Positions 1 through 8,772 of a stretch of 64,000 nt of DNA are shown here, piece after piece. The stretch's first letter is position 1. Each line of letters starts with the position of its first letter. The notes below the pieces were generated by a model. It was given only the letters and a program-made list of their open reading frames with translations, had not been told where the DNA came from and made no database searches. Made by a program: the position numbers and the translations under genes. Source of the stretch: Bacteriovoracaceae bacterium (GTDB lineage: Bacteria > Bdellovibrionota > Bacteriovoracia > Bacteriovoracales > Bacteriovoracaceae); NCBI GenBank assembly GCA_048270185.1, contig JBLWTJ010000003.1, positions 1 to 64,000 on the forward strand. The letters are read 5' to 3'.

Positions 1-118
1 TGAAAACACAAGAAAAAGAGCATCGATACATTCACCATTAACCATCTTCTTAATTACAAAATAAAGATTAAACATAAATAAAAATAATAGGCTGAATAAT
101 TAGTCAAAGGAGATTTAT

Positions 119-1036
119 ATTAAAAATTTAGCATTTAAGAATGAGGATGAAGAAAATTTTAAATTAAAGAAGAAGTACTTTAAGAAACTAAAAAAACTAA
201 AAGAAGTTGAAGCTTATTCTTATAAGAGAAAAGTAGCAGGTAAGAAGACTTATGTCTTCTCCAAAGAATCTTTAGAAGATGTCCAATTAGGGTACCAAAT
301 TCTTTTCTCTATATTGAAATATATTGAAATGGGAAGAGAAGAAAAGCTTAAGTACAAGTACCTAGAGTCAGTAGGAGGACTAAAGGAATTTATCAGAAAA
401 GGTGGAATTATCACAATCTTAGTTGATGGTAAGAGTGTCATTGCTTTTAGTGCTTGTATGCTTCTTGAGAGTGCTAGGTATCAATGTATTACTCTTACAT
501 TGGGGCTTACTTTTGCTATTGCAAATTCGTCATGTAATGAGGTGATGAGACTTCTAAGTGTTGCTTATTTGGAGTATGCATCTGAAATTGCTTTCCAAAA
601 AGAATACAGGCTAAATGCAACATGCCCTCTTAATTGTCCTAGAACTTTTAGTGCTGTAGAGCCTATCTTTAATAAAAACTGTTATCCCTTTAGAGGTAAT
701 TCAGATGCAACATTAAAGGACTCTAGGGAGTTAACTTTTGAAAATTATATTACTCCTAACTTTCCTGAGGCAAAGCTCTTTAAGGGATTTCCAATTTTTT
801 CTAGTAATAAAAAAGAGATGGGGTTTATTGAATCATACCAATTCTCAAAGGCTACAGGGAATTCTAAATATGATGGATTTATTGCAAAGTATATTCATGA
901 TTTTAGTACCCAGGACTTAATCATATCTGGAGACTTATTTGATGAGGTCATAAGTTATTTGAAGTTTATTAATATTATTAAGAATATTGAACATAGCTGT
1001 AATCAGGCTAATAACAAAGGAGACAAAATTGATTAG
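119..1036 (+). CDS. Hypothetical protein, possible GNAT/acyltransferase-like fold; probable ATT start
   Basis: Frame of track ORF 314..1036 is open back to TAG at 101-103. SD AAAGGAG (106-112) lies 6 nt before in-frame ATT at 119. The fold guess rests only on the strand/helix pattern. Confidence 0.6.
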   Translation: MKNLAFKNEDEENFKLKKKYFKKLKKLKEVEAYSYKRKVAGKKTYVFSKESLEDVQLGYQILFSILKYIEMGREEKLKYKYLESVGGLKEFIRKGGIITILVDGKSVIAFSACMLLESARYQCITLTLGLTFAIANSSCNEVMRLLSVAYLEYASEIAFQKEYRLNATCPLNCPRTFSAVEPIFNKNCYPFRGNSDATLKDSRELTFENYITPNFPEAKLFKGFPIFSSNKKEMGFIESYQFSKATGNSKYDGFIAKYIHDFSTQDLIISGDLFDEVISYLKFINIIKNIEHSCNQANNKGDKID

Positions 1037-2000
1037 TAAGAAATTTATTAAAATTCAGGTTAAAAATGTGGAGTCAGAGATTCAAAAGGAAATGGACAGT
1101 GCTTTATTGGCTGTTCTTCAAACAGAAGGAGAGAAGTTTGATATTAAGGTAAAGTCCTTCCTTTCCTTTAAAGATACCTTTAGAAACCTTAGAACATTTA
1201 AGGCAGATGACATCACCCTTAGAATGAGAGAGATGTTTAGTAGGATTTGGTTAACAGCTCCAGAGAAGGAGATGACTAAAAGGTTTAATAAGAAAATTAT
1301 GCTATGTGGGCTTGGGATAAGTTCAAACTTAATACCTCATCTTATTAAAGAAGGTTTCATAACAATAGGGCTAATTGATGGTGATATTGTTGAACACCAG
1401 AATATCTTAAGGCAGAGATTTGAATCTCTTGATATTGGTAAACCTAAAGCAGAGGTTCTCTATGAAAGATATAAGAGAGAGTTTCCCTTTTCTAGGCTTT
1501 CTTATGTGAATGAATATCTTGAGCATTGGTCAACTAAGCTGTTACTTAAGGAGAGTGGTGTTGACTATATGGTAAATGCTATTGATTTTGACAGTGAAGC
1601 CTATCTTTCATCACATAAGCTAGCTCATATGTATTGTGGACTAGAGTTATTTCCATTTGTTCTTGGGGATATTGGAGTTGTCATTGCTGTTGATAGAACA
1701 TGTCCAACATTTGAAGAATATTTTAAAACAAGTAATCCTGAAGAGATGAAGTTTAAAATAATTCAACACTGTATAGATGAAGTTAAGAAGTCATGTGATG
1801 ACTATGATAGGAATCAGCTTGATAATTACTTTAATGAGTATCTAAAAAGTGGGCTATTTCATCACTCTGACCCACAATGTGACAATGCTGTTCAGAAAAT
1901 AGCTTCACTAATAGTTAGTATACTTAAAAAGGATACAAGAAATGAAGGTAAAGATAGAGAGAAGTTGTTTAAGTTATTTCCAGAAATCAATTTCTATTAA
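1029..2000 (+). CDS. ThiF/E1-like adenylyltransferase family protein
   Basis: KIMLCGLG..LIDGDIVEHQNILRQ..DIGKPKAE..NAID motifs. SD AAAGGAG (1016-1022) lies 6 nt before TTG at 1029. Confidence 0.85.
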   Translation: MISKKFIKIQVKNVESEIQKEMDSALLAVLQTEGEKFDIKVKSFLSFKDTFRNLRTFKADDITLRMREMFSRIWLTAPEKEMTKRFNKKIMLCGLGISSNLIPHLIKEGFITIGLIDGDIVEHQNILRQRFESLDIGKPKAEVLYERYKREFPFSRLSYVNEYLEHWSTKLLLKESGVDYMVNAIDFDSEAYLSSHKLAHMYCGLELFPFVLGDIGVVIAVDRTCPTFEEYFKTSNPEEMKFKIIQHCIDEVKKSCDDYDRNQLDNYFNEYLKSGLFHHSDPQCDNAVQKIASLIVSILKKDTRNEGKDREKLFKLFPEINFY

Positions 2001-2001
2001 A

Positions 2002-2676
2002 TTATTCTATATTATGTAAGGCAAGGCTTCCTTTTTTGGACTTTGCCTTAATTCCAAAGCATTTAATCTTCTTATTTAAATTACTAATATGAGTCGCTAA
2101 ATTATTAGCTGACATATTGCTATTTGCCCCCCAGATATCATCGATGATTTCTTCAATAATAACATCTTTTTGAGATAATATCTTTGAAATGAGTAGAACC
2201 TCTTTATGTGTGAGCTGAACTTCTATTCCTAATTTGGATATTGTAAATCTTGTATGATCAATATTAATTCCAAATGAGTTTCTTGAATCATTTATATTAG
2301 TCTTAGTTGGCGAGATCTTGTTAAGAATTCTCATTCTTTTTACACTCCAAGGCATATCTGGAGTAAGAAGTTCACCTGAGCCATACTTCAGTGCTTCAAG
2401 CATTAACTCTTCATCAATAGTCTCTGAGAAGAAGAATGTTGGTTGACCTTTAAAATTATCCATTTGAGAAAGGCGTTGAAATAATTGAAAACCATCAAGA
2501 AATGGCATCATAATATCTAAAACTAATACGTCATAATCGATAAATCGGGCTTCATTGAGAGCTTCAAGAGGATTGGAGAAAGTTTTTATCTTGTATCCTT
2601 CAATTTGTATATTTTCGACAAAATCGTTTATCTTGCCTTCATTATCATCAATGTAAAGTATTCTCTTAATGTCCAT
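2002..2676 (-). CDS. Response regulator (receiver plus winged-helix, OmpR-like)
   Basis: ILYIDD, VLDIMMPFLDG receiver motifs; C-terminal LTHKE..IWG..THISNLNKK. ATG at 2676 fits the domain start. Confidence 0.88.
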   Translation of the reverse strand: MDIKRILYIDDNEGKINDFVENIQIEGYKIKTFSNPLEALNEARFIDYDVLVLDIMMPFLDGFQLFQRLSQMDNFKGQPTFFFSETIDEELMLEALKYGSGELLTPDMPWSVKRMRILNKISPTKTNINDSRNSFGINIDHTRFTISKLGIEVQLTHKEVLLISKILSQKDVIIEEIIDDIWGANSNMSANNLATHISNLNKKIKCFGIKAKSKKGSLALHNIE

Positions 2677-2776
2677 GAAAATATTGTGACATGCATTATC
2701 TAATAGGTAAATATCGACTAAAAAAATTATCTCTAGGGCCATTGCTAGAGTGCATCATATAGTGGAGAATCTATTT

Positions 2777-3901
2777 ATGTTTAATATTTCAAAATACTTA
2801 GAACCAGAAGAAGCAAGACTATTTAAAGTAATAATGGCCATTGCACTTACGCTTTTGCTTGTTATTATATGGGATATCGTTGGTATTAAAGTTGAAGTGA
2901 CAGCTTTTTATATTATTCAAAAAGCGATATTTATTTTTGGACCTATGCTAGTCTTCTTTATTCCTCGTTTAAATTATAAAGTTAAGCATACAATCATCGC
3001 GTGTCTTTATTATCTATATGCATATATTAATTCAATCTATGTTGATAGTAGTTATTTTACGGCCTTTATCCAGTTCTATCTTGGTTGTGTTTTCATTCTT
3101 AGATATAATACTTTAGGCTTTGCGATAAGCCATGCTGTAGGGTTCATTCTATATTTTCTTGTTCTAATTGATCAACAATCAAAGTTATCGATGGTCGAAT
3201 TCGATCAAATGGCCAAGATGATGAATGGTGCGGTTTACCCAATCTTTTTCATCACCGTCATGATTTATTTCTATATTAGAAGAAAAGAGGCAGATGATCA
3301 GGTTAAGTCTGAGTTCTTTAGACAAGTTGGGCAAAATGTCGGCTTTATCCTTCATGAAATTAAACAACCGCTTAAGCAATTGCAATTTGCACAAAATGAT
3401 CAAACTCTAACGGAAGTTAATGAGCTTCTTGAGACCGCAAATATTCTATGGCCTAGTGGAAAGAGTAGTAATGCAGTTAAAGTCGATTTAAATATTAGAG
3501 AAGTTATAAATGGAATTATTTCTGAATTTGATTCTTATACAAAATTTTTGAATATTGAAATTTCTGTTTTTGAAGAGGATCATTTCATTAGAAGTAATCG
3601 AGCAATTCTACGAATTATTATAAAAAATATTATTAAGAATGCTCTTGAAGAAATTGCAGGTAATGAAGGTGAAAATTACTTGAAAATTAAATTACATAGC
3701 GATCATTCAATCGTGATAAAGAATAATATCAGTAAGAAAGTAAATATTAACAAAGTCTTTGATGCTGGCTATTCAACGAAGAGGCACGTTGCTAATAAGG
3801 GCCTAGGTCTCTACATCTGTAAAAACCTAAGTGATAAAATTGGTACTAAACTTAGTGCATACTCAAATAAATCTGAATTTGTCGTTAAAATTAAATTTTA
3901 A
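2777..3901 (+). CDS. Multi-TM sensor histidine kinase
   Basis: About 6 hydrophobic segments, H-box LHEIKQP, N-box NIIKNALE, GYSTK..GLGLY. ATG 2777 preferred to GTG 2750. Confidence 0.88.
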   Translation: MFNISKYLEPEEARLFKVIMAIALTLLLVIIWDIVGIKVEVTAFYIIQKAIFIFGPMLVFFIPRLNYKVKHTIIACLYYLYAYINSIYVDSSYFTAFIQFYLGCVFILRYNTLGFAISHAVGFILYFLVLIDQQSKLSMVEFDQMAKMMNGAVYPIFFITVMIYFYIRRKEADDQVKSEFFRQVGQNVGFILHEIKQPLKQLQFAQNDQTLTEVNELLETANILWPSGKSSNAVKVDLNIREVINGIISEFDSYTKFLNIEISVFEEDHFIRSNRAILRIIIKNIIKNALEEIAGNEGENYLKIKLHSDHSIVIKNNISKKVNINKVFDAGYSTKRHVANKGLGLYICKNLSDKIGTKLSAYSNKSEFVVKIKF

Positions 3902-4278
3902 CGACAATTTGGAATCGTATATATTTCAACTCGCTCAGGCTTCTTTGAGTGAAGATGCTGCACTAGATTTGAACTATCTCCGTCATCTCGATTTCCTACT
4001 GTTCCGCGGTAGATTGGAACATCCACTTGCTTTTCAACATAGTGACCTTGAATTTCACAGTTGAAATAATTAGCTGTCGTACAATTTTTATCACTATTAA
4101 TGACACGTTCAACCTCGCATCTTGTTGACGAGATGAGTTCTCTTTTAAATTTCCAGTCTTCTATTTTATACTTGTAGTGATTAACTTTCTTAATTGAGGC
4201 CAGGGTATTATCATCTTTAATACAAATTTCTTTCCTCCCTAGCGAAAGTGAATATTTGTTAGTATTTGATGAAAAGAT
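3898..4278 (-). pseudogene. Start-less 126-codon ORF, probable degenerate secreted Cys-containing protein (paralog-like to 57294..57788)
   Basis: Manual translation IFSSNTNKYSLSLGRKEICIKDDN...VEIYTIPNCR*, bounded upstream by TAA at 4279-4281 with no usable start. The C-terminus resembles YTIPKCL. Confidence 0.55.
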
Positions 4279-4432
4279 TTATATTGGCCGGGAATTACTT
4301 CTTCAATTTTTTGAAAGTTTTTATTTTTTTTATGGGACATGTCCCTAAATTTAGGCCAAACTTTTTTAAGGTGTCCTTATCAAAGTCTGATCTGGATCAT
4401 TAAATAGTCATTTTTATTTGGTAAAATAAAGT

Positions 4433-5020
4433 ATGAAGAAGATAAAAATAACTCTCATTTCACTCTTATTAATCGTATCATCTGCTGTTGTTGGCTACTT
4501 CTCAACAGATTATAGCGAAACACAAAAACAAAGATGGGTTTTCTTTGATCTCGGTAATACGATTGTAAACACTCATACTAGTGGACACTATCACTACTAC
4601 GCAGGATCTTATGAGTACCTTAAGGCCTTAAAAGCGATGGGGATTAATGTTGCAATCATTTCAAATATCCCGGAATCTTTTGGTGAGACATATGAGCAAA
4701 AAGTAGAGTCACTTAAGAAGTACCTCGCTTCTCACTGGGATGATAGTCGCGAATTTGATTGGTCAATTTTTGATAAAATCTATATCCCAATGAATAACTC
4801 AGAGCTTAAACCTGCGCCTTATATTTTCTTAAAGGCCCTGGAGGAAACAGGGGGGCACCCAAGTCTCTATATCTCTGAATCCCTAAAAGAAGTTGAGGCC
4901 GCAAGACGCCTTGGCATGGCCGGATTTCACTTTTTAGAGGGGATGAAGAAGGCCAAGTCGAATATTTATATCAAGCTTGAGGAAATTATTCAGTATATTG
5001 ACGAAAATAGTCATATTTAA
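4433..5020 (+). CDS. HAD-family hydrolase with N-terminal signal/anchor
   Basis: FFDLGNT motif I, IISN motif II, KPAP motif III; hydrophobic N-terminus. Confidence 0.8.
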   Translation: MKKIKITLISLLLIVSSAVVGYFSTDYSETQKQRWVFFDLGNTIVNTHTSGHYHYYAGSYEYLKALKAMGINVAIISNIPESFGETYEQKVESLKKYLASHWDDSREFDWSIFDKIYIPMNNSELKPAPYIFLKALEETGGHPSLYISESLKEVEAARRLGMAGFHFLEGMKKAKSNIYIKLEEIIQYIDENSHI

Positions 5021-5084
5021 CTTCATTTAGTGACTTTTATCAGGTATTTATCATCCCTCATAAGATAGATTTGTTGAGGGAGGG

Positions 5085-7385
5085 GTGATGCTCTATTCAT
5101 TTTCAAACTTAGATAAGAATATGCGAGATGTAGGTGGAAAAGCCTATATGCTTGCCATGATGTTACAAGAAGGAATTCGTGTTCCAAATGGAATGATTCT
5201 TAATAGTCTTCCGACTGAAGAAGAGTTTCAATCTCTTAGTCGATTCTTAAAAGAAATCAATTCGAGTGTCGCAGTAAGAAGCTCTTCACGCGCAGAAGAT
5301 TCAAAAGAAAATAGTTTTGCAGGTCAAAATTCAACTTTCCTCTATATCGATAATGATAAAGATCTAAAAGATGCAATTAATAAATGCTTTGCTTCTGTTA
5401 ATAACGATTCATCAAAGGCCTACCGTAAATACTTCATGGGAAGTGAAGCTGATGTGGCCATGAATGTTGTTGTACAAGAGATGGTTGATCCAATTTACTC
5501 TGGGGTATACTTTTCTAAGGACCCACGAGGAGTGAAAGAAGGTTGGATTCTCGAGTATATTGACGGTGTCGGTGAAGATCTTGTTTCTGGTAAGAGAACT
5601 CCTGAGTCAATGTCTGAGTTCGCACAAAAGCATGATGCTCTATCTCAAAAACAAGTTAATGAATTAATTGGTTATACAACAATCATTGAAGAAAGATTTA
5701 ATGATCTCTTTGATATCGAATGGGCAATCGGTCAGGATCAAAGAGTATATATTCTTCAAGCAAGACCGATTACTGCTAAATTCTCTCATTCTAATATTAA
5801 AAATATCATTTCTTTAGAATTAGATAGATTAAGAAAAGAATACTCTAAAGATACAATTTGGGATGGACAAACTTTTTCAGAATTAACAGTTTCACCTTCT
5901 CGTTTTTCAAGTGCTCTCTGGACTGAAAGCTTTGCGCCTGATAGGGCCTTTGATTTGGCCTTAAAGAAAATCGGCTATCTTGGCTTTGAAGATGTCATGG
6001 CCCCTTCTATTCTCAATACAATATTTGGTCAGAGCTATATTAACCTCAAAGAGCTTGGGAAGTTATACTTTGGCGATATTCCATATCAAATTGTGCCAAA
6101 GCCTAGGCCTCATCTTAAATTTAAACTCTCTCTTATTACTTTTAAGATGCTATTAAATGCCCCTAAGAGTATGTGGAAGATGTTAAGTGTTGGGTTATCT
6201 GTTAATACTAGTCGAAACTCAATCATTAAAGATTCTCTAAAAGATCTGGTTAAATTTAGAGAGAGAATGCAAAGACCTAGTGATCCACAATTTTATGAGT
6301 CTTGGTCTGATACTGAAATAGATGAGCGCATTTTAAAAGAATGGCACGTTTTCTCTAAACATACACTCTGTTGGCCTTATATTCTTATAAGCCTCACAGA
6401 AACAACTATTCAAACTCTTCAGTCACTCTTATCAAGTATTGTTTCAGATGATAGGGCCCGCGATATGATACGTGAGTGGTGTGGCCAAGGAATTCATACT
6501 AAGACATATGAAATGAATCGCTACTTTAAGAAAGCTTGTGCAAGGCCCGAGCTTAGACCAATGTTCTTAGCTCGCTATGGACATAGAGGGCCTGGAGAGC
6601 TCGATTTATCATCAATTCGCTGGGCAGAAATGGGTGAGGATTCATTCTATGATCTTTCGATCGAAGATTATGAAAAATCGAAACTAAATCACAAGATCCT
6701 TGATGTGAAAGCAGAGATTGAAAATTTAAAGTCATTTAAGAAATCTATTGTTTTAGAAGAATGGATAATTTTAAAAAAATTACTTGAGTTAAGAGAAGAG
6801 TGGAAGATGCAGATGTTAAAACCATTTGCTCATATTCGATTTTTACTTTTAGAAAAGGCCAAGAGAATTGGTTTAAATGATGCCAATGATATATTCTGGC
6901 TTGATTTAGCCGAGGTAATGAATTTCTTTAATTTAGAAAATCCACAGCAAATTATCAATTCACGAAAAGAAGAAGCAAAGCTATTTAAAAATATTAATTT
7001 ATCGGCCGTTACTTCTCTTAACGAGATTGAAGATATTCTCAGTGGGAAGTCTTCTGGAAGTGATAACTTAAAGGGTGAAGGGCTTTCAACTGGACTTGTA
7101 AAAGGAAATGTTGTGGTCGTTGATAATCCAGCAAATTTTAAAAACTACAATTGGCCAGAGAATCCAATCATTGTTGCTCAATCAACAGATCCTGGTTGGA
7201 CTTCAATTTTTACAAAGGCCAGCGGTATTATCGTTGAACGTGGTGGTGTTCTATCTCATTGTGCTATTGTAGCAAGAGAGATGGGAATTCCTGCAGTAAG
7301 TGAAATTAATAATTGTCACTTAAGATTTAAAGGGGGAGAAAGTGTTTGGGTTGATGGAAGCACAGGAAATATTAAGCTCAACTAA
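5085..7385 (+). CDS. PEP-utilising dikinase-like enzyme (rifampin phosphotransferase/PigC-like architecture)
   Basis: VGGKA, VAVRSS..ED..SFAG ATP-grasp; DIEWA..LQARPIT; central YGHRGPGELDL..RW; C-terminal TDPGW..GGVLSHCAIVARE swivel His domain. Confidence 0.88.
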   Translation: MMLYSFSNLDKNMRDVGGKAYMLAMMLQEGIRVPNGMILNSLPTEEEFQSLSRFLKEINSSVAVRSSSRAEDSKENSFAGQNSTFLYIDNDKDLKDAINKCFASVNNDSSKAYRKYFMGSEADVAMNVVVQEMVDPIYSGVYFSKDPRGVKEGWILEYIDGVGEDLVSGKRTPESMSEFAQKHDALSQKQVNELIGYTTIIEERFNDLFDIEWAIGQDQRVYILQARPITAKFSHSNIKNIISLELDRLRKEYSKDTIWDGQTFSELTVSPSRFSSALWTESFAPDRAFDLALKKIGYLGFEDVMAPSILNTIFGQSYINLKELGKLYFGDIPYQIVPKPRPHLKFKLSLITFKMLLNAPKSMWKMLSVGLSVNTSRNSIIKDSLKDLVKFRERMQRPSDPQFYESWSDTEIDERILKEWHVFSKHTLCWPYILISLTETTIQTLQSLLSSIVSDDRARDMIREWCGQGIHTKTYEMNRYFKKACARPELRPMFLARYGHRGPGELDLSSIRWAEMGEDSFYDLSIEDYEKSKLNHKILDVKAEIENLKSFKKSIVLEEWIILKKLLELREEWKMQMLKPFAHIRFLLLEKAKRIGLNDANDIFWLDLAEVMNFFNLENPQQIINSRKEEAKLFKNINLSAVTSLNEIEDILSGKSSGSDNLKGEGLSTGLVKGNVVVVDNPANFKNYNWPENPIIVAQSTDPGWTSIFTKASGIIVERGGVLSHCAIVAREMGIPAVSEINNCHLRFKGGESVWVDGSTGNIKLN

Positions 7386-8772
7386 TAGTATCTTCGAACA
7401 ATATCATTATTCAATTGTTCCAACGGTATTATTGCCTCTTGCCTTCTTGAGTACTGGTATAAGTGTTATTGCAACATTTGTTGCGGGACTATTTGGGGTG
7501 AAGCTTAAGGCCGAAGGTCCAAGAAAGCTTTTAGAGCTTCTACTAAAGCCAAAGATACTTATTAGTGCGATGGTTCTCAATGGTGTTCTTTATTTAGGCT
7601 TTATGGCCTATGAAGATTTTGATCGTGGCCCAAGTCCTGTATTTGTGCAAAATGCTCTAAATTCAAACTTGGCCCCAACAATTGAAATCAAAAAGACAGG
7701 TCTACCAAACTCTCAGTGGGCCATCAATATCGGTGAAGGAATGTTTTCTCGTGGTATTGTTATTGATAGTGAATTATTTGTTGGAACTAAAGATGGTCAT
7801 CTCTTAGTTATCGACTATAAAAGCGGGGAAGTTAAAGAAGAAGTCTATTTTGGAAGCTTCTTGTCGCCAGAGCCTATTCTTTATAAAGGATTCTTATATT
7901 TCGGAGAGGGGTTGCACCGCTCTCACAAAATGAGAGTTTATAAATTTGATCCTAAGAAGAAAGAGATTGTTGCAATCTTTGATACTAAAGGGCACACAGA
8001 GATTAGAGCTGTCGTAAAAGAATTTGATAACCAAGCAATTCTTTTTCAAAGTGCAGGTGGAGATGGACTCTATGCGATTGATCCTATTTCAATGAAGAAG
8101 GTTTGGAATTTTCAAGGAGGACATATGGACTCCTTTGTTAATGTCGATCATGACTCAGTCTACATTGCCTCTGGTGTTCCTGATGAGGATCTTGGAAAGG
8201 CCCGTCCAATGGCCTACCGAATTGATGCTAAAACTGGAAAACAGCTATGGGCACAAGAGTTACCTCTTTCATCATGGTATCAACCAATCCTTATCGGTGA
8301 TAAGGCCTGCTACTCACAAGGAGAACTTCATCAGAAATCAATGCTTGGTGGTGTGATCTGTTTTTCTAAAGATGGAAAGAGGCTAGGAAATGTCTTAATT
8401 GATTACCCAATTGTAAATAAGATGATTGCTAAAGGAAGTAATATTTTTCTAAATGACTTCTACGGTAACCTTTATTCAATCGATAGCGACCTTTACAAAG
8501 TAAACTGGGAAGTTGCGGGTAATAAGGCCAAGTACAATTACAGTTCTGTTCAATTCTACAATGAAGATATTCTAGTACTTGTTTCTAGAGATGCTAAGAT
8601 GAAATTCATTAATGCCAAAGACGGAAAAGTTCTTTTTGAACAAGATGTCTTTGAAGATGAGAGCGTGTTTGCCGATCCTTTAATTCAAGATGGTGACATC
8701 CTCGTCTTTGGTTATGCCGGACAAATTGTTAAATACCCTGCTGAATTTATTAAGTCTAAGCTAAGCTTTTAG
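7342..8772 (+). CDS. Membrane-anchored PQQ-like beta-propeller repeat protein
   Basis: N-terminal TM segments and repeated propeller blades (IDAKTGKQLW, IDPISMKKVW, INAKDGKVLF). Confidence 0.75.
   Translation: MFGLMEAQEILSSTNSIFEQYHYSIVPTVLLPLAFLSTGISVIATFVAGLFGVKLKAEGPRKLLELLLKPKILISAMVLNGVLYLGFMAYEDFDRGPSPVFVQNALNSNLAPTIEIKKTGLPNSQWAINIGEGMFSRGIVIDSELFVGTKDGHLLVIDYKSGEVKEEVYFGSFLSPEPILYKGFLYFGEGLHRSHKMRVYKFDPKKKEIVAIFDTKGHTEIRAVVKEFDNQAILFQSAGGDGLYAIDPISMKKVWNFQGGHMDSFVNVDHDSVYIASGVPDEDLGKARPMAYRIDAKTGKQLWAQELPLSSWYQPILIGDKACYSQGELHQKSMLGGVICFSKDGKRLGNVLIDYPIVNKMIAKGSNIFLNDFYGNLYSIDSDLYKVNWEVAGNKAKYNYSSVQFYNEDILVLVSRDAKMKFINAKDGKVLFEQDVFEDESVFADPLIQDGDILVFGYAGQIVKYPAEFIKSKLSF

Follow-up and report, generated by a model that had tools for sequence, protein, structure and literature searches.

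The window analysed here comprises bases 1–64000 of contig C3 (JBLWTJ010000003.1) in the 3.35-Mb genome (30 contigs; G000) of a marine predatory bacterium of the family Bacteriovoracaceae. Four genes lie at positions 119–3901 of the window, and they encode a protein of an unnamed family (ORF1), a ThiF-type adenylyltransferase, a response regulator and a membrane histidine kinase; all four are present and arranged as first described, and the interpretation offered with that description is supported in part. The source name on a cluster member of the closest ORF1 homologue indicates Halobacteriovorax. The module is best described as a variation on the N-acyltransferase/ThiF theme: it has a new GNAT-like family and no oxidase, and in predatory bacteria it is repeatedly associated with histidine kinases. 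Based on the protein fold, the ATP site, a gene fusion, recurrent gene contexts and synteny, we lean, if only slightly, towards a reading in which ORF1 is an N-acyl amino-acid synthase, ThiF is the enzyme that adenylates a carboxylate or closes a ring, and the pair is linked genetically to a two-component system. Its product is probably a fatty-acyl derivative of an amino acid, which may act as a signal.

ORF1 and the ThiF enzyme

ORF1, the putative N-acyl amino-acid synthase (119–1036, plus strand; 305 residues), begins at a rare start codon. Its frame is open from 104, just after a stop codon at 101–103, to the TAG codon at 1034–1036, and no ATG, GTG or TTG occurs between that first stop and a TTG at 314. 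The apparent start is ATT at 119, 6 nucleotides after a Shine-Dalgarno sequence, AAGGAG (107–112, plus strand), which was read directly from the DNA. The long form is real: its N-terminus aligns with a homologue (residues 6–70 with P0003) and folds as part of the domain, the first 70 residues having block values of the predicted local distance difference test (pLDDT) of 81–96 in the AlphaFold2 (AF2) model. Two public assemblies, one of them from an independent study, cover bases 1–134, with T>C at 100 as their sole listed difference; because they agree at 104–121, the ATT start is not a contig-end error. The database gene call P0002 (235 residues), which starts at ATG 329, 70 codons late, is too short, since the long form is supported.

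No match to ORF1 was found in Pfam, NCBIfam or PADLOC, and a HMMER search with a two-sequence profile against 1.84 billion representatives recovered only nine proteins. AF2 gave an unusable model from two sequences (pLDDT 33), and a model with pLDDT 89.3 and a predicted template-modelling score of 0.88 from alignment A6, the 29 rows of which include distant relatives gathered from genomes of the same family; the profile of A6 retrieved nothing significant among PDB sequences (best E-value 0.13). With this model, Foldseek retrieved 83 chains from the PDB at E ≤ 1e-3, all those listed being GNAT acetyltransferases. In the VIA structural search of 48,161 chains, the best 50 were likewise all GNAT proteins (Z 10.7–8.8), with 138–183 residues aligned that span model residues 24–304, and 114 chains had Z of at least 8, the best being 1yre (Z 10.7, 175 residues aligned). 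These best 50 rows, general GNATs with Z of about 9–11, do not include FeeM or BjaI, a result that does not exclude either of them. ORF1 is thus predicted to be a GNAT-fold protein of an unnamed family. The GNAT call was weak in the preliminary description, and the lead to GNAT from the ESM Atlas is weak as well, but structure prediction and Foldseek on 119–1036, together with VIA, have now placed the model in the GNAT acyltransferase fold. No cysteine is invariant among the ORF1 relatives.

The ThiF gene (1029–2000, plus strand), for a divergent ThiF/E1-type adenylyltransferase of 323 residues, likely starts at TTG 1029, after AAGGAG at 1017–1022, and overlaps the ORF1 stop codon by 8 nucleotides. 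Its product matches the Pfam ThiF model at 2e-12 (47.2 bits; cut-off 28.1) and carries an N-terminal extension of about 85 residues. In an alignment of 14 ThiF sequences, R72, G94, G96, D117, D119, N125, R128, K140 and D186 are invariant; by comparison with MoeB/ThiF, we take these residues to be the ATP site, which appears from the alignment to be intact. No cysteine is invariant among the 14 sequences, which argues for direct use of an acyl-adenylate over an E1-type thioester. The best PDB match of the window ThiF is 9EGB/9EGC (1.7e-10). These entries, with 9EGD, are of a 265-residue protein named 'THIF-type NAD/FAD binding fold', for which we could find no describing paper, and which shares the motifs NA(I/L)DF and P(F/Y)xLG with the window ThiF.

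One of the nine HMMER matches, P0008 (603 residues), is a fusion of both enzymes, with an ORF1 domain at 36–288 and Pfam ThiF at 354–560. Its C-terminal half is 29% identical to the window ThiF over 268 residues (E-value = 1e-35), the alignment reaching both C-termini. Apart from P0008, a word-index search of a 5.8-billion-protein index gave no close relative of the window ThiF; a tblastn search of plasmids with P0008 found generic ThiF cores only, and scans for related loci in genome contigs (alignments A3 and A4) and metagenome contigs (A3 and a 29-nucleotide pattern from the window) gave no match. A modelled complex of ORF1 and ThiF scored 0.00, which counts neither way. The pairing of ORF1 with ThiF is functional, as judged from the fusion in P0008 and the recurrent pairing in relatives.

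Relatives of ORF1 and their gene contexts

A profile of two distant members of the ORF1 family matched 32 of the 237 genomes of Bacteriovoracaceae. The relatives form clades A to D, clade A being the group of the window ORF1, and in an hhalign profile–profile comparison, clade A and clades C plus D are homologous over 225 columns (89%; E-value = 2.3e-6). ThiF is paired with an unnamed GNAT-like family in a whole radiation in predatory bacteria.

Clade B was found in 14 genomes, and all 14 loci were examined. ThiF lies directly before the ORF1 relative (here called X) in 13 of them, and a kinase of about 465 residues is encoded just upstream, also in 13 of 14; at the locus without a kinase, the contig edge falls just past ThiF, and at one other locus ThiF is missing and the kinase precedes a broken X. 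Only kinase, ThiF and X are conserved, and the flanks vary. From reading its sequence alone, no membrane span was seen in the clade B kinase. TcdA is the nearest protein of known structure to the clade B ThiF (2e-18). The X and ThiF proteins of this clade (L034, L035 and L070–L079) carry lysine-rich C-terminal tails, mostly ending in -AA, -VA or -IA (for ThiF, also -VS or -AG), which could be degradation tags or membrane anchors; such tails were not seen in the window's own proteins.

The context of clade D is to be compared with two known pathways. In Pseudoalteromonas rubra, the N-acyltransferase OxzA is encoded directly upstream of OxzB, a ThiF–nitroreductase fusion, and the pair yields acyl-oxazolones that derive from N-acyl tyrosine or phenylalanine (10.1101/2020.06.11.147165; PMC12596934). 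The Tyz system also makes acyl-oxazolones, with ThiF (TyzB, 318 residues) and the flavin oxidase (TyzC) as separate proteins, and Rv1355c is a ThiF–oxidase fusion beside an oxzA homologue (PMC10404671). The clade D operon looks like an extended cluster of this Oxz/Tyz type. In all five loci (L093–L097; genomes G270, G423, G418, G422 and G440), X and ThiF follow each other in one operon and head a conserved downstream row. The full row, present in four of the five, runs X, ThiF, an unknown protein of about 394 residues, a GNAT, a protein of 332–336 residues and a di-haem cytochrome c peroxidase; L097 is without the ~394-residue gene. In three of three loci scanned, the 332–336-residue protein is an Acg-family flavin mononucleotide (FMN) oxidoreductase (4e-37 to 5e-42, full-length, below cut-off), and it also matches the C-terminal parts of the Rv1355c family and of PRK14851. 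As judged from gene content, clade D has the full gene set of the Oxz/Tyz pathway, with the ORF1 relative in the position of the acyltransferase. Because of this gene set and the closeness of the clade B ThiF to TcdA, ORF1 is taken here for an N-acyl amino-acid synthase, with ThiF as the enzyme that would activate the carboxylate of its product.

Clade C has another partner. A PlsC-type acyltransferase is encoded within about 2 kb in 12 of the 15 loci, and in four of the six loci scanned with Pfam its gene lies directly upstream of X and overlaps it. The best NCBIfam match of these PlsC-type proteins is OlsA, the lyso-ornithine-lipid O-acyltransferase (6e-32, below the curated cut-off); the NCBIfam OlsB model matched only one clade C protein and insignificantly (E-value = 0.052), and two clade C proteins gave weak GNAT matches in Pfam. 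At one clade C locus (L080, 7637–11177), the pair of X and PlsC follows genes for a LuxC-like acyl-CoA reductase and a LuxE-like acyl-protein synthetase. No kinase was found at the loci examined of clades C and D.

The two-component system and its link to the cassette

The OmpR-type response regulator (2002–2676, minus strand; 224 residues) faces the ORF1–ThiF pair, the stop codons of ThiF (1998–2000) and the regulator (2002) lying 1 nucleotide apart, as had been noticed earlier. Its start at M23 fits the orthologue in another genome of the family, G005, and its domains are Response_reg (3.4e-14) and Trans_reg_C (25.9 bits, just below the 26.2 cut-off). Receiver domains have a conserved Lys-Pro motif; at the expected site, the sequence of the regulator seems to read Met-Pro, as does its G005 orthologue. 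The regulator and the kinase are divergent across 100 bp (2677–2776), and this AT-rich region contains a G+C-rich inverted repeat at 2731–2750 (6-bp arms, 8-nucleotide centre), a possible operator.

The sensor histidine kinase (374 residues) is encoded at 2777–3901 on the plus strand, with an alternative GTG start at 2750. It has the H-box HEIKQPL and a HATPase_c domain (4.1e-8). Its N-terminal 180 residues are hydrophobic: four stretches in residues 20–176 pass a strict hydropathy window, and about six spans with short loops, without a periplasmic domain, are recognized on reading. This agrees with the preliminary description of a kinase with about six spans. However, the kinase is not a hybrid of the LuxN/CqsS type and has no homology to the sensor domains of LuxN, CqsS or AgrC in Pfam or NCBIfam. 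An Atlas lead to 6TM_PilS is weak (score 0.90).

Among 40 relatives searched for the kinase, a full-length match (45%) exists only in G005, the next best being 29%. There the regulator (47% identity) adjoins the kinase and is followed by a gene for a bPH-domain protein and one for a small membrane protein. Two genes past the regulator, on the convergent strand, is an open remnant of 45 residues, with 89% identity to the P0008 C-terminus; the fusion gene thus once occupied the same relative position in G005 as in the window, and has since decayed. An AbiEii/AbiEi toxin–antitoxin module lies directly against the remnant and another borders the kinase (L026, 6947–8442 and 12549–14266), which suggests that this kinase–regulator island lies in a variable region. 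Short words common to the promoter regions of G000 and G005 are too weak to call a regulator site. Synthase and kinase thus occur together in the window genome, in G005 as a remnant, and in 13 of the 14 clade B loci, and because of the G005 synteny and the clade B contexts the link appears to be more than chance.

The cassette sits at the extreme start of the contig, base 1 of the window being base 1 of C3, which limits the view upstream of ORF1. Public contigs reach farther: in one of 7,233 nucleotides (run X1), window base 1 falls at position 2943, and another of 7,271 nucleotides from an independent run (X3) appears to extend about 6.3 kb past that base. The start of C3 overlaps no other contig end. 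Another contig start, C2:5–2337, was considered as the missing neighbour and rejected, since the unit there is a bPH-like protein (45% to that of G009, a further relative) with a paralogous OmpR-like regulator, beside a 386-residue protein. Farther along the window, at 5085–8772, a gene for a phosphoenolpyruvate-utilising enzyme (PPDK_N plus mobile domain, 766 residues) overlaps the start of the next gene, which encodes a PQQ/BamB-like beta-propeller protein with an N-terminal membrane segment. Among the six ORFs scanned at 119–7385, no ThiS/MoaD, JAB, E2 or nitroreductase was seen, in agreement with what had been noted around ThiF for the first three, nor was an exporter. In a literature search, we could not find any paper in which Halobacteriovorax and ThiF occur together.

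Interpretation and comparison with known systems

The pathway that we favour would run as follows. ORF1, as a GNAT-fold N-acyltransferase, would most likely acylate an amino acid with a fatty acyl group, and ThiF would use ATP to adenylate the carboxylate left free on the product. Because no catalytic cysteine is conserved, the adenylate would then either close into a saturated acyl-oxazolone ring or react with some other nucleophile. The OmpR-type regulator and the six-span kinase would control the cassette or answer to the lipophilic compound that it makes, within the membrane, the link being conceivable in either direction. Since most ThiF pairs of this radiation are without a flavin oxidase, new chemistry is likely.

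Several observations weigh against this account. No sequence match connects ORF1 with known N-acyl amino-acid synthases, and PF13444, which we take to be the OlsB/NAS family, gave no match, at the thresholds applied, to ORF1 or to any of its relatives. The canonical GNAT pyrophosphate loop is R/Q-x-x-G-x-G/A; ORF1 has A-N-S-S-C-N at this position, where clades C and D have R-G-x-G-L or R-E-G-G-L, and as ORF1 and clade B are without the R-G-x-G loop that those clades keep, the acyl donor may be unusual. No flavin oxidase was found in four clade B loci scanned with Pfam, and PF00881 has only four matches in the whole window genome, all distant from the cassette, with the nearest nitroreductase at C3:356527. 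The window ThiF falls on a very long, unplaceable branch of the ThiF tree, and because of this its kinship to the ThiFs of clades B and D is unsettled. Finally, the kinase link of clade A rests on two genomes, one with a remnant only, and in G009 the closest ORF1 homologue (42%) adjoins the same two small genes as in G005, without ThiF, regulator or kinase. The proposed synteny is borne out in part: kinase and regulator recur in G005 beside the fusion remnant and a kinase recurs in clade B, whereas the G009 homologue stands without them.

The first alternative, which we regard as a tenable but less probable explanation, is that the cassette makes or remodels a lipoamino acid of the membrane, in the manner of OlsB, and is switched on by the two-component system under an envelope or prey cue. 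The OlsA-like O-acyltransferases beside X in 12 of the 15 clade C loci are consistent with this, and envelope genes are commonly under the control of a local two-component system. However, no PlsC-type gene was found near the window cassette, and the clade B kinase adjoins its enzymes without a regulator, which is odd for a simple switch; to our knowledge, a ThiF step has no place in aminolipid synthesis.

A special case of the favoured pathway is an autoinducer loop, in which the cassette would make a signal, diffusible or membrane-borne, for which the adjacent six-span kinase would be the receptor. Synthase-like genes beside two unrelated kinase architectures (six-span in clade A, ~465 residues at 13 of the 14 clade B loci) and the absence of a periplasmic domain from the window kinase both point in this direction, and the authors of the Oxz preprint suggest that water-labile oxazolones may act as signals (10.1101/2020.06.11.147165). 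The non-hybrid kinase, with no sensor homology to LuxN, CqsS or AgrC and only a weak PilS-type lead, and the same enzyme family without a kinase in clades C and D, speak against it, and we judge the loop to be unlikely; the 'quorum-like' reading is a hypothesis. More doubtful still is the broader proposal that predators of the Bacteriovoracaceae use a new class of cell–cell or predator–prey signal, a labile saturated acyl-oxazolone or a lipid derived from an N-acyl-aminoacyl adenylate, made by the GNAT-like/ThiF pair and read by dedicated adjoining kinases. The readers would be the six-span intramembrane sensor in this genome and the ~465-residue kinase of the kinase–ThiF–X row in sister genera. 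Found repeatedly beside histidine kinases, the pair is a concrete candidate through which chemical signalling by Bdellovibrio-like predators could be tested.

It is improbable that the substrate of ThiF is a small ribosomal peptide, adenylated at its C-terminus as by MccB, PaaA and GrcB, with the GNAT protein providing self-immunity as MccE does. A precursor gene would in that case lie upstream of window base 1, the N-terminal extension of ThiF and its weak PDB match to MccB (1.2e-3) fit such a role, and ThiF-like enzymes are part of quorum-controlled peptide pathways (PMC12596934). But the overlap of ORF1 and ThiF and the P0008 fusion leave no peptide gene between them, no conserved small ORF exists in 11 clade B kinase–ThiF gaps, no short precursor gene or exporter was seen downstream of the cassette or in relatives, and lipid chemistry is what the gene contexts of clades C and D suggest; an McC-like system was considered and is disfavoured, as no peptide or exporter was seen in the scanned ORFs. 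An E1-like protein-conjugation or defence module, to which the Cap2-type E2–E1 fusions, where an extra domain likewise precedes the E1, the PADLOC Cap2 models that match ThiF (best 8.3e-10) and the G005 copy between AbiE toxin–antitoxin modules might point, is very improbable, and a Cap2-type system with an E2-like ORF1 was rejected, since neither the ORF1 relatives nor the ThiFs have an invariant cysteine, the ORF1 fold is GNAT and not E2/UBC, the PADLOC matches are limited to the Rossmann core, and no JAB, ubiquitin-like or effector gene was seen in the window ORFs at 119–7385 or in four clade B loci.

Among known systems, OlsB/OlsA resembles the family through the clade C relatives of ORF1, which are coupled to a PlsC-type gene with OlsA as its best NCBIfam match, but in the window a ThiF gene stands where the O-acyltransferase would be. 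TcdA, the tRNA t6A cyclodehydratase, likewise belongs to the ThiF family, and it activates an N-acylated amino acid (threonine) at the carboxylate for ring closure; it differs in acting on tRNA, and the window's own ThiF matches 9EGB/9EGC best instead. CqsA/CqsS and LuxM/LuxN are quorum pairs of a synthase and a membrane kinase, and the window similarly has a putative small-molecule synthase beside a multi-span kinase without a periplasmic domain. The enzymes of the window are not homologous to theirs, with no Pfam or NCBIfam match, and its kinase is not a hybrid and has its own OmpR-type regulator.

The Oxz/Tyz systems share several features with the module: in the window, ORF1, predicted to have an acyltransferase fold, lies immediately upstream of ThiF and is co-oriented with it, the ThiF stands alone and has 323 residues against about 318 in TyzB (PMC10404671), and the sister clade D of ORF1 has both ThiF and a flavin oxidase of the Acg/Rv1355c type. 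This situation is different from that of Oxz/Tyz in four respects: the window is without a nitroreductase-superfamily oxidase, fused or nearby; ORF1 belongs to a different, unnamed GNAT family without a sequence match to named acyltransferase families; the window ThiF is extremely divergent; and the cassette adjoins a two-component system, whereas the term 'histidine kinase' has no occurrence in the available text of the Oxz preprint (10.1101/2020.06.11.147165). The analogy with OxzA/OxzB made in the preliminary description is thus supported by the clade D operon, with its ThiF and flavin oxidase, and by the OlsA-like pairing of clade C, and is weakened by the window's want of a flavin oxidase. 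For this last reason, the window cassette is not a member of OxzAB/TyzABC, and any oxazolone that it makes would be of the saturated, reactive kind. As the biological role of acyl-oxazolones is still open according to the Oxz preprint (10.1101/2020.06.11.147165), a kinase wired to a related pathway may provide a handle on it.

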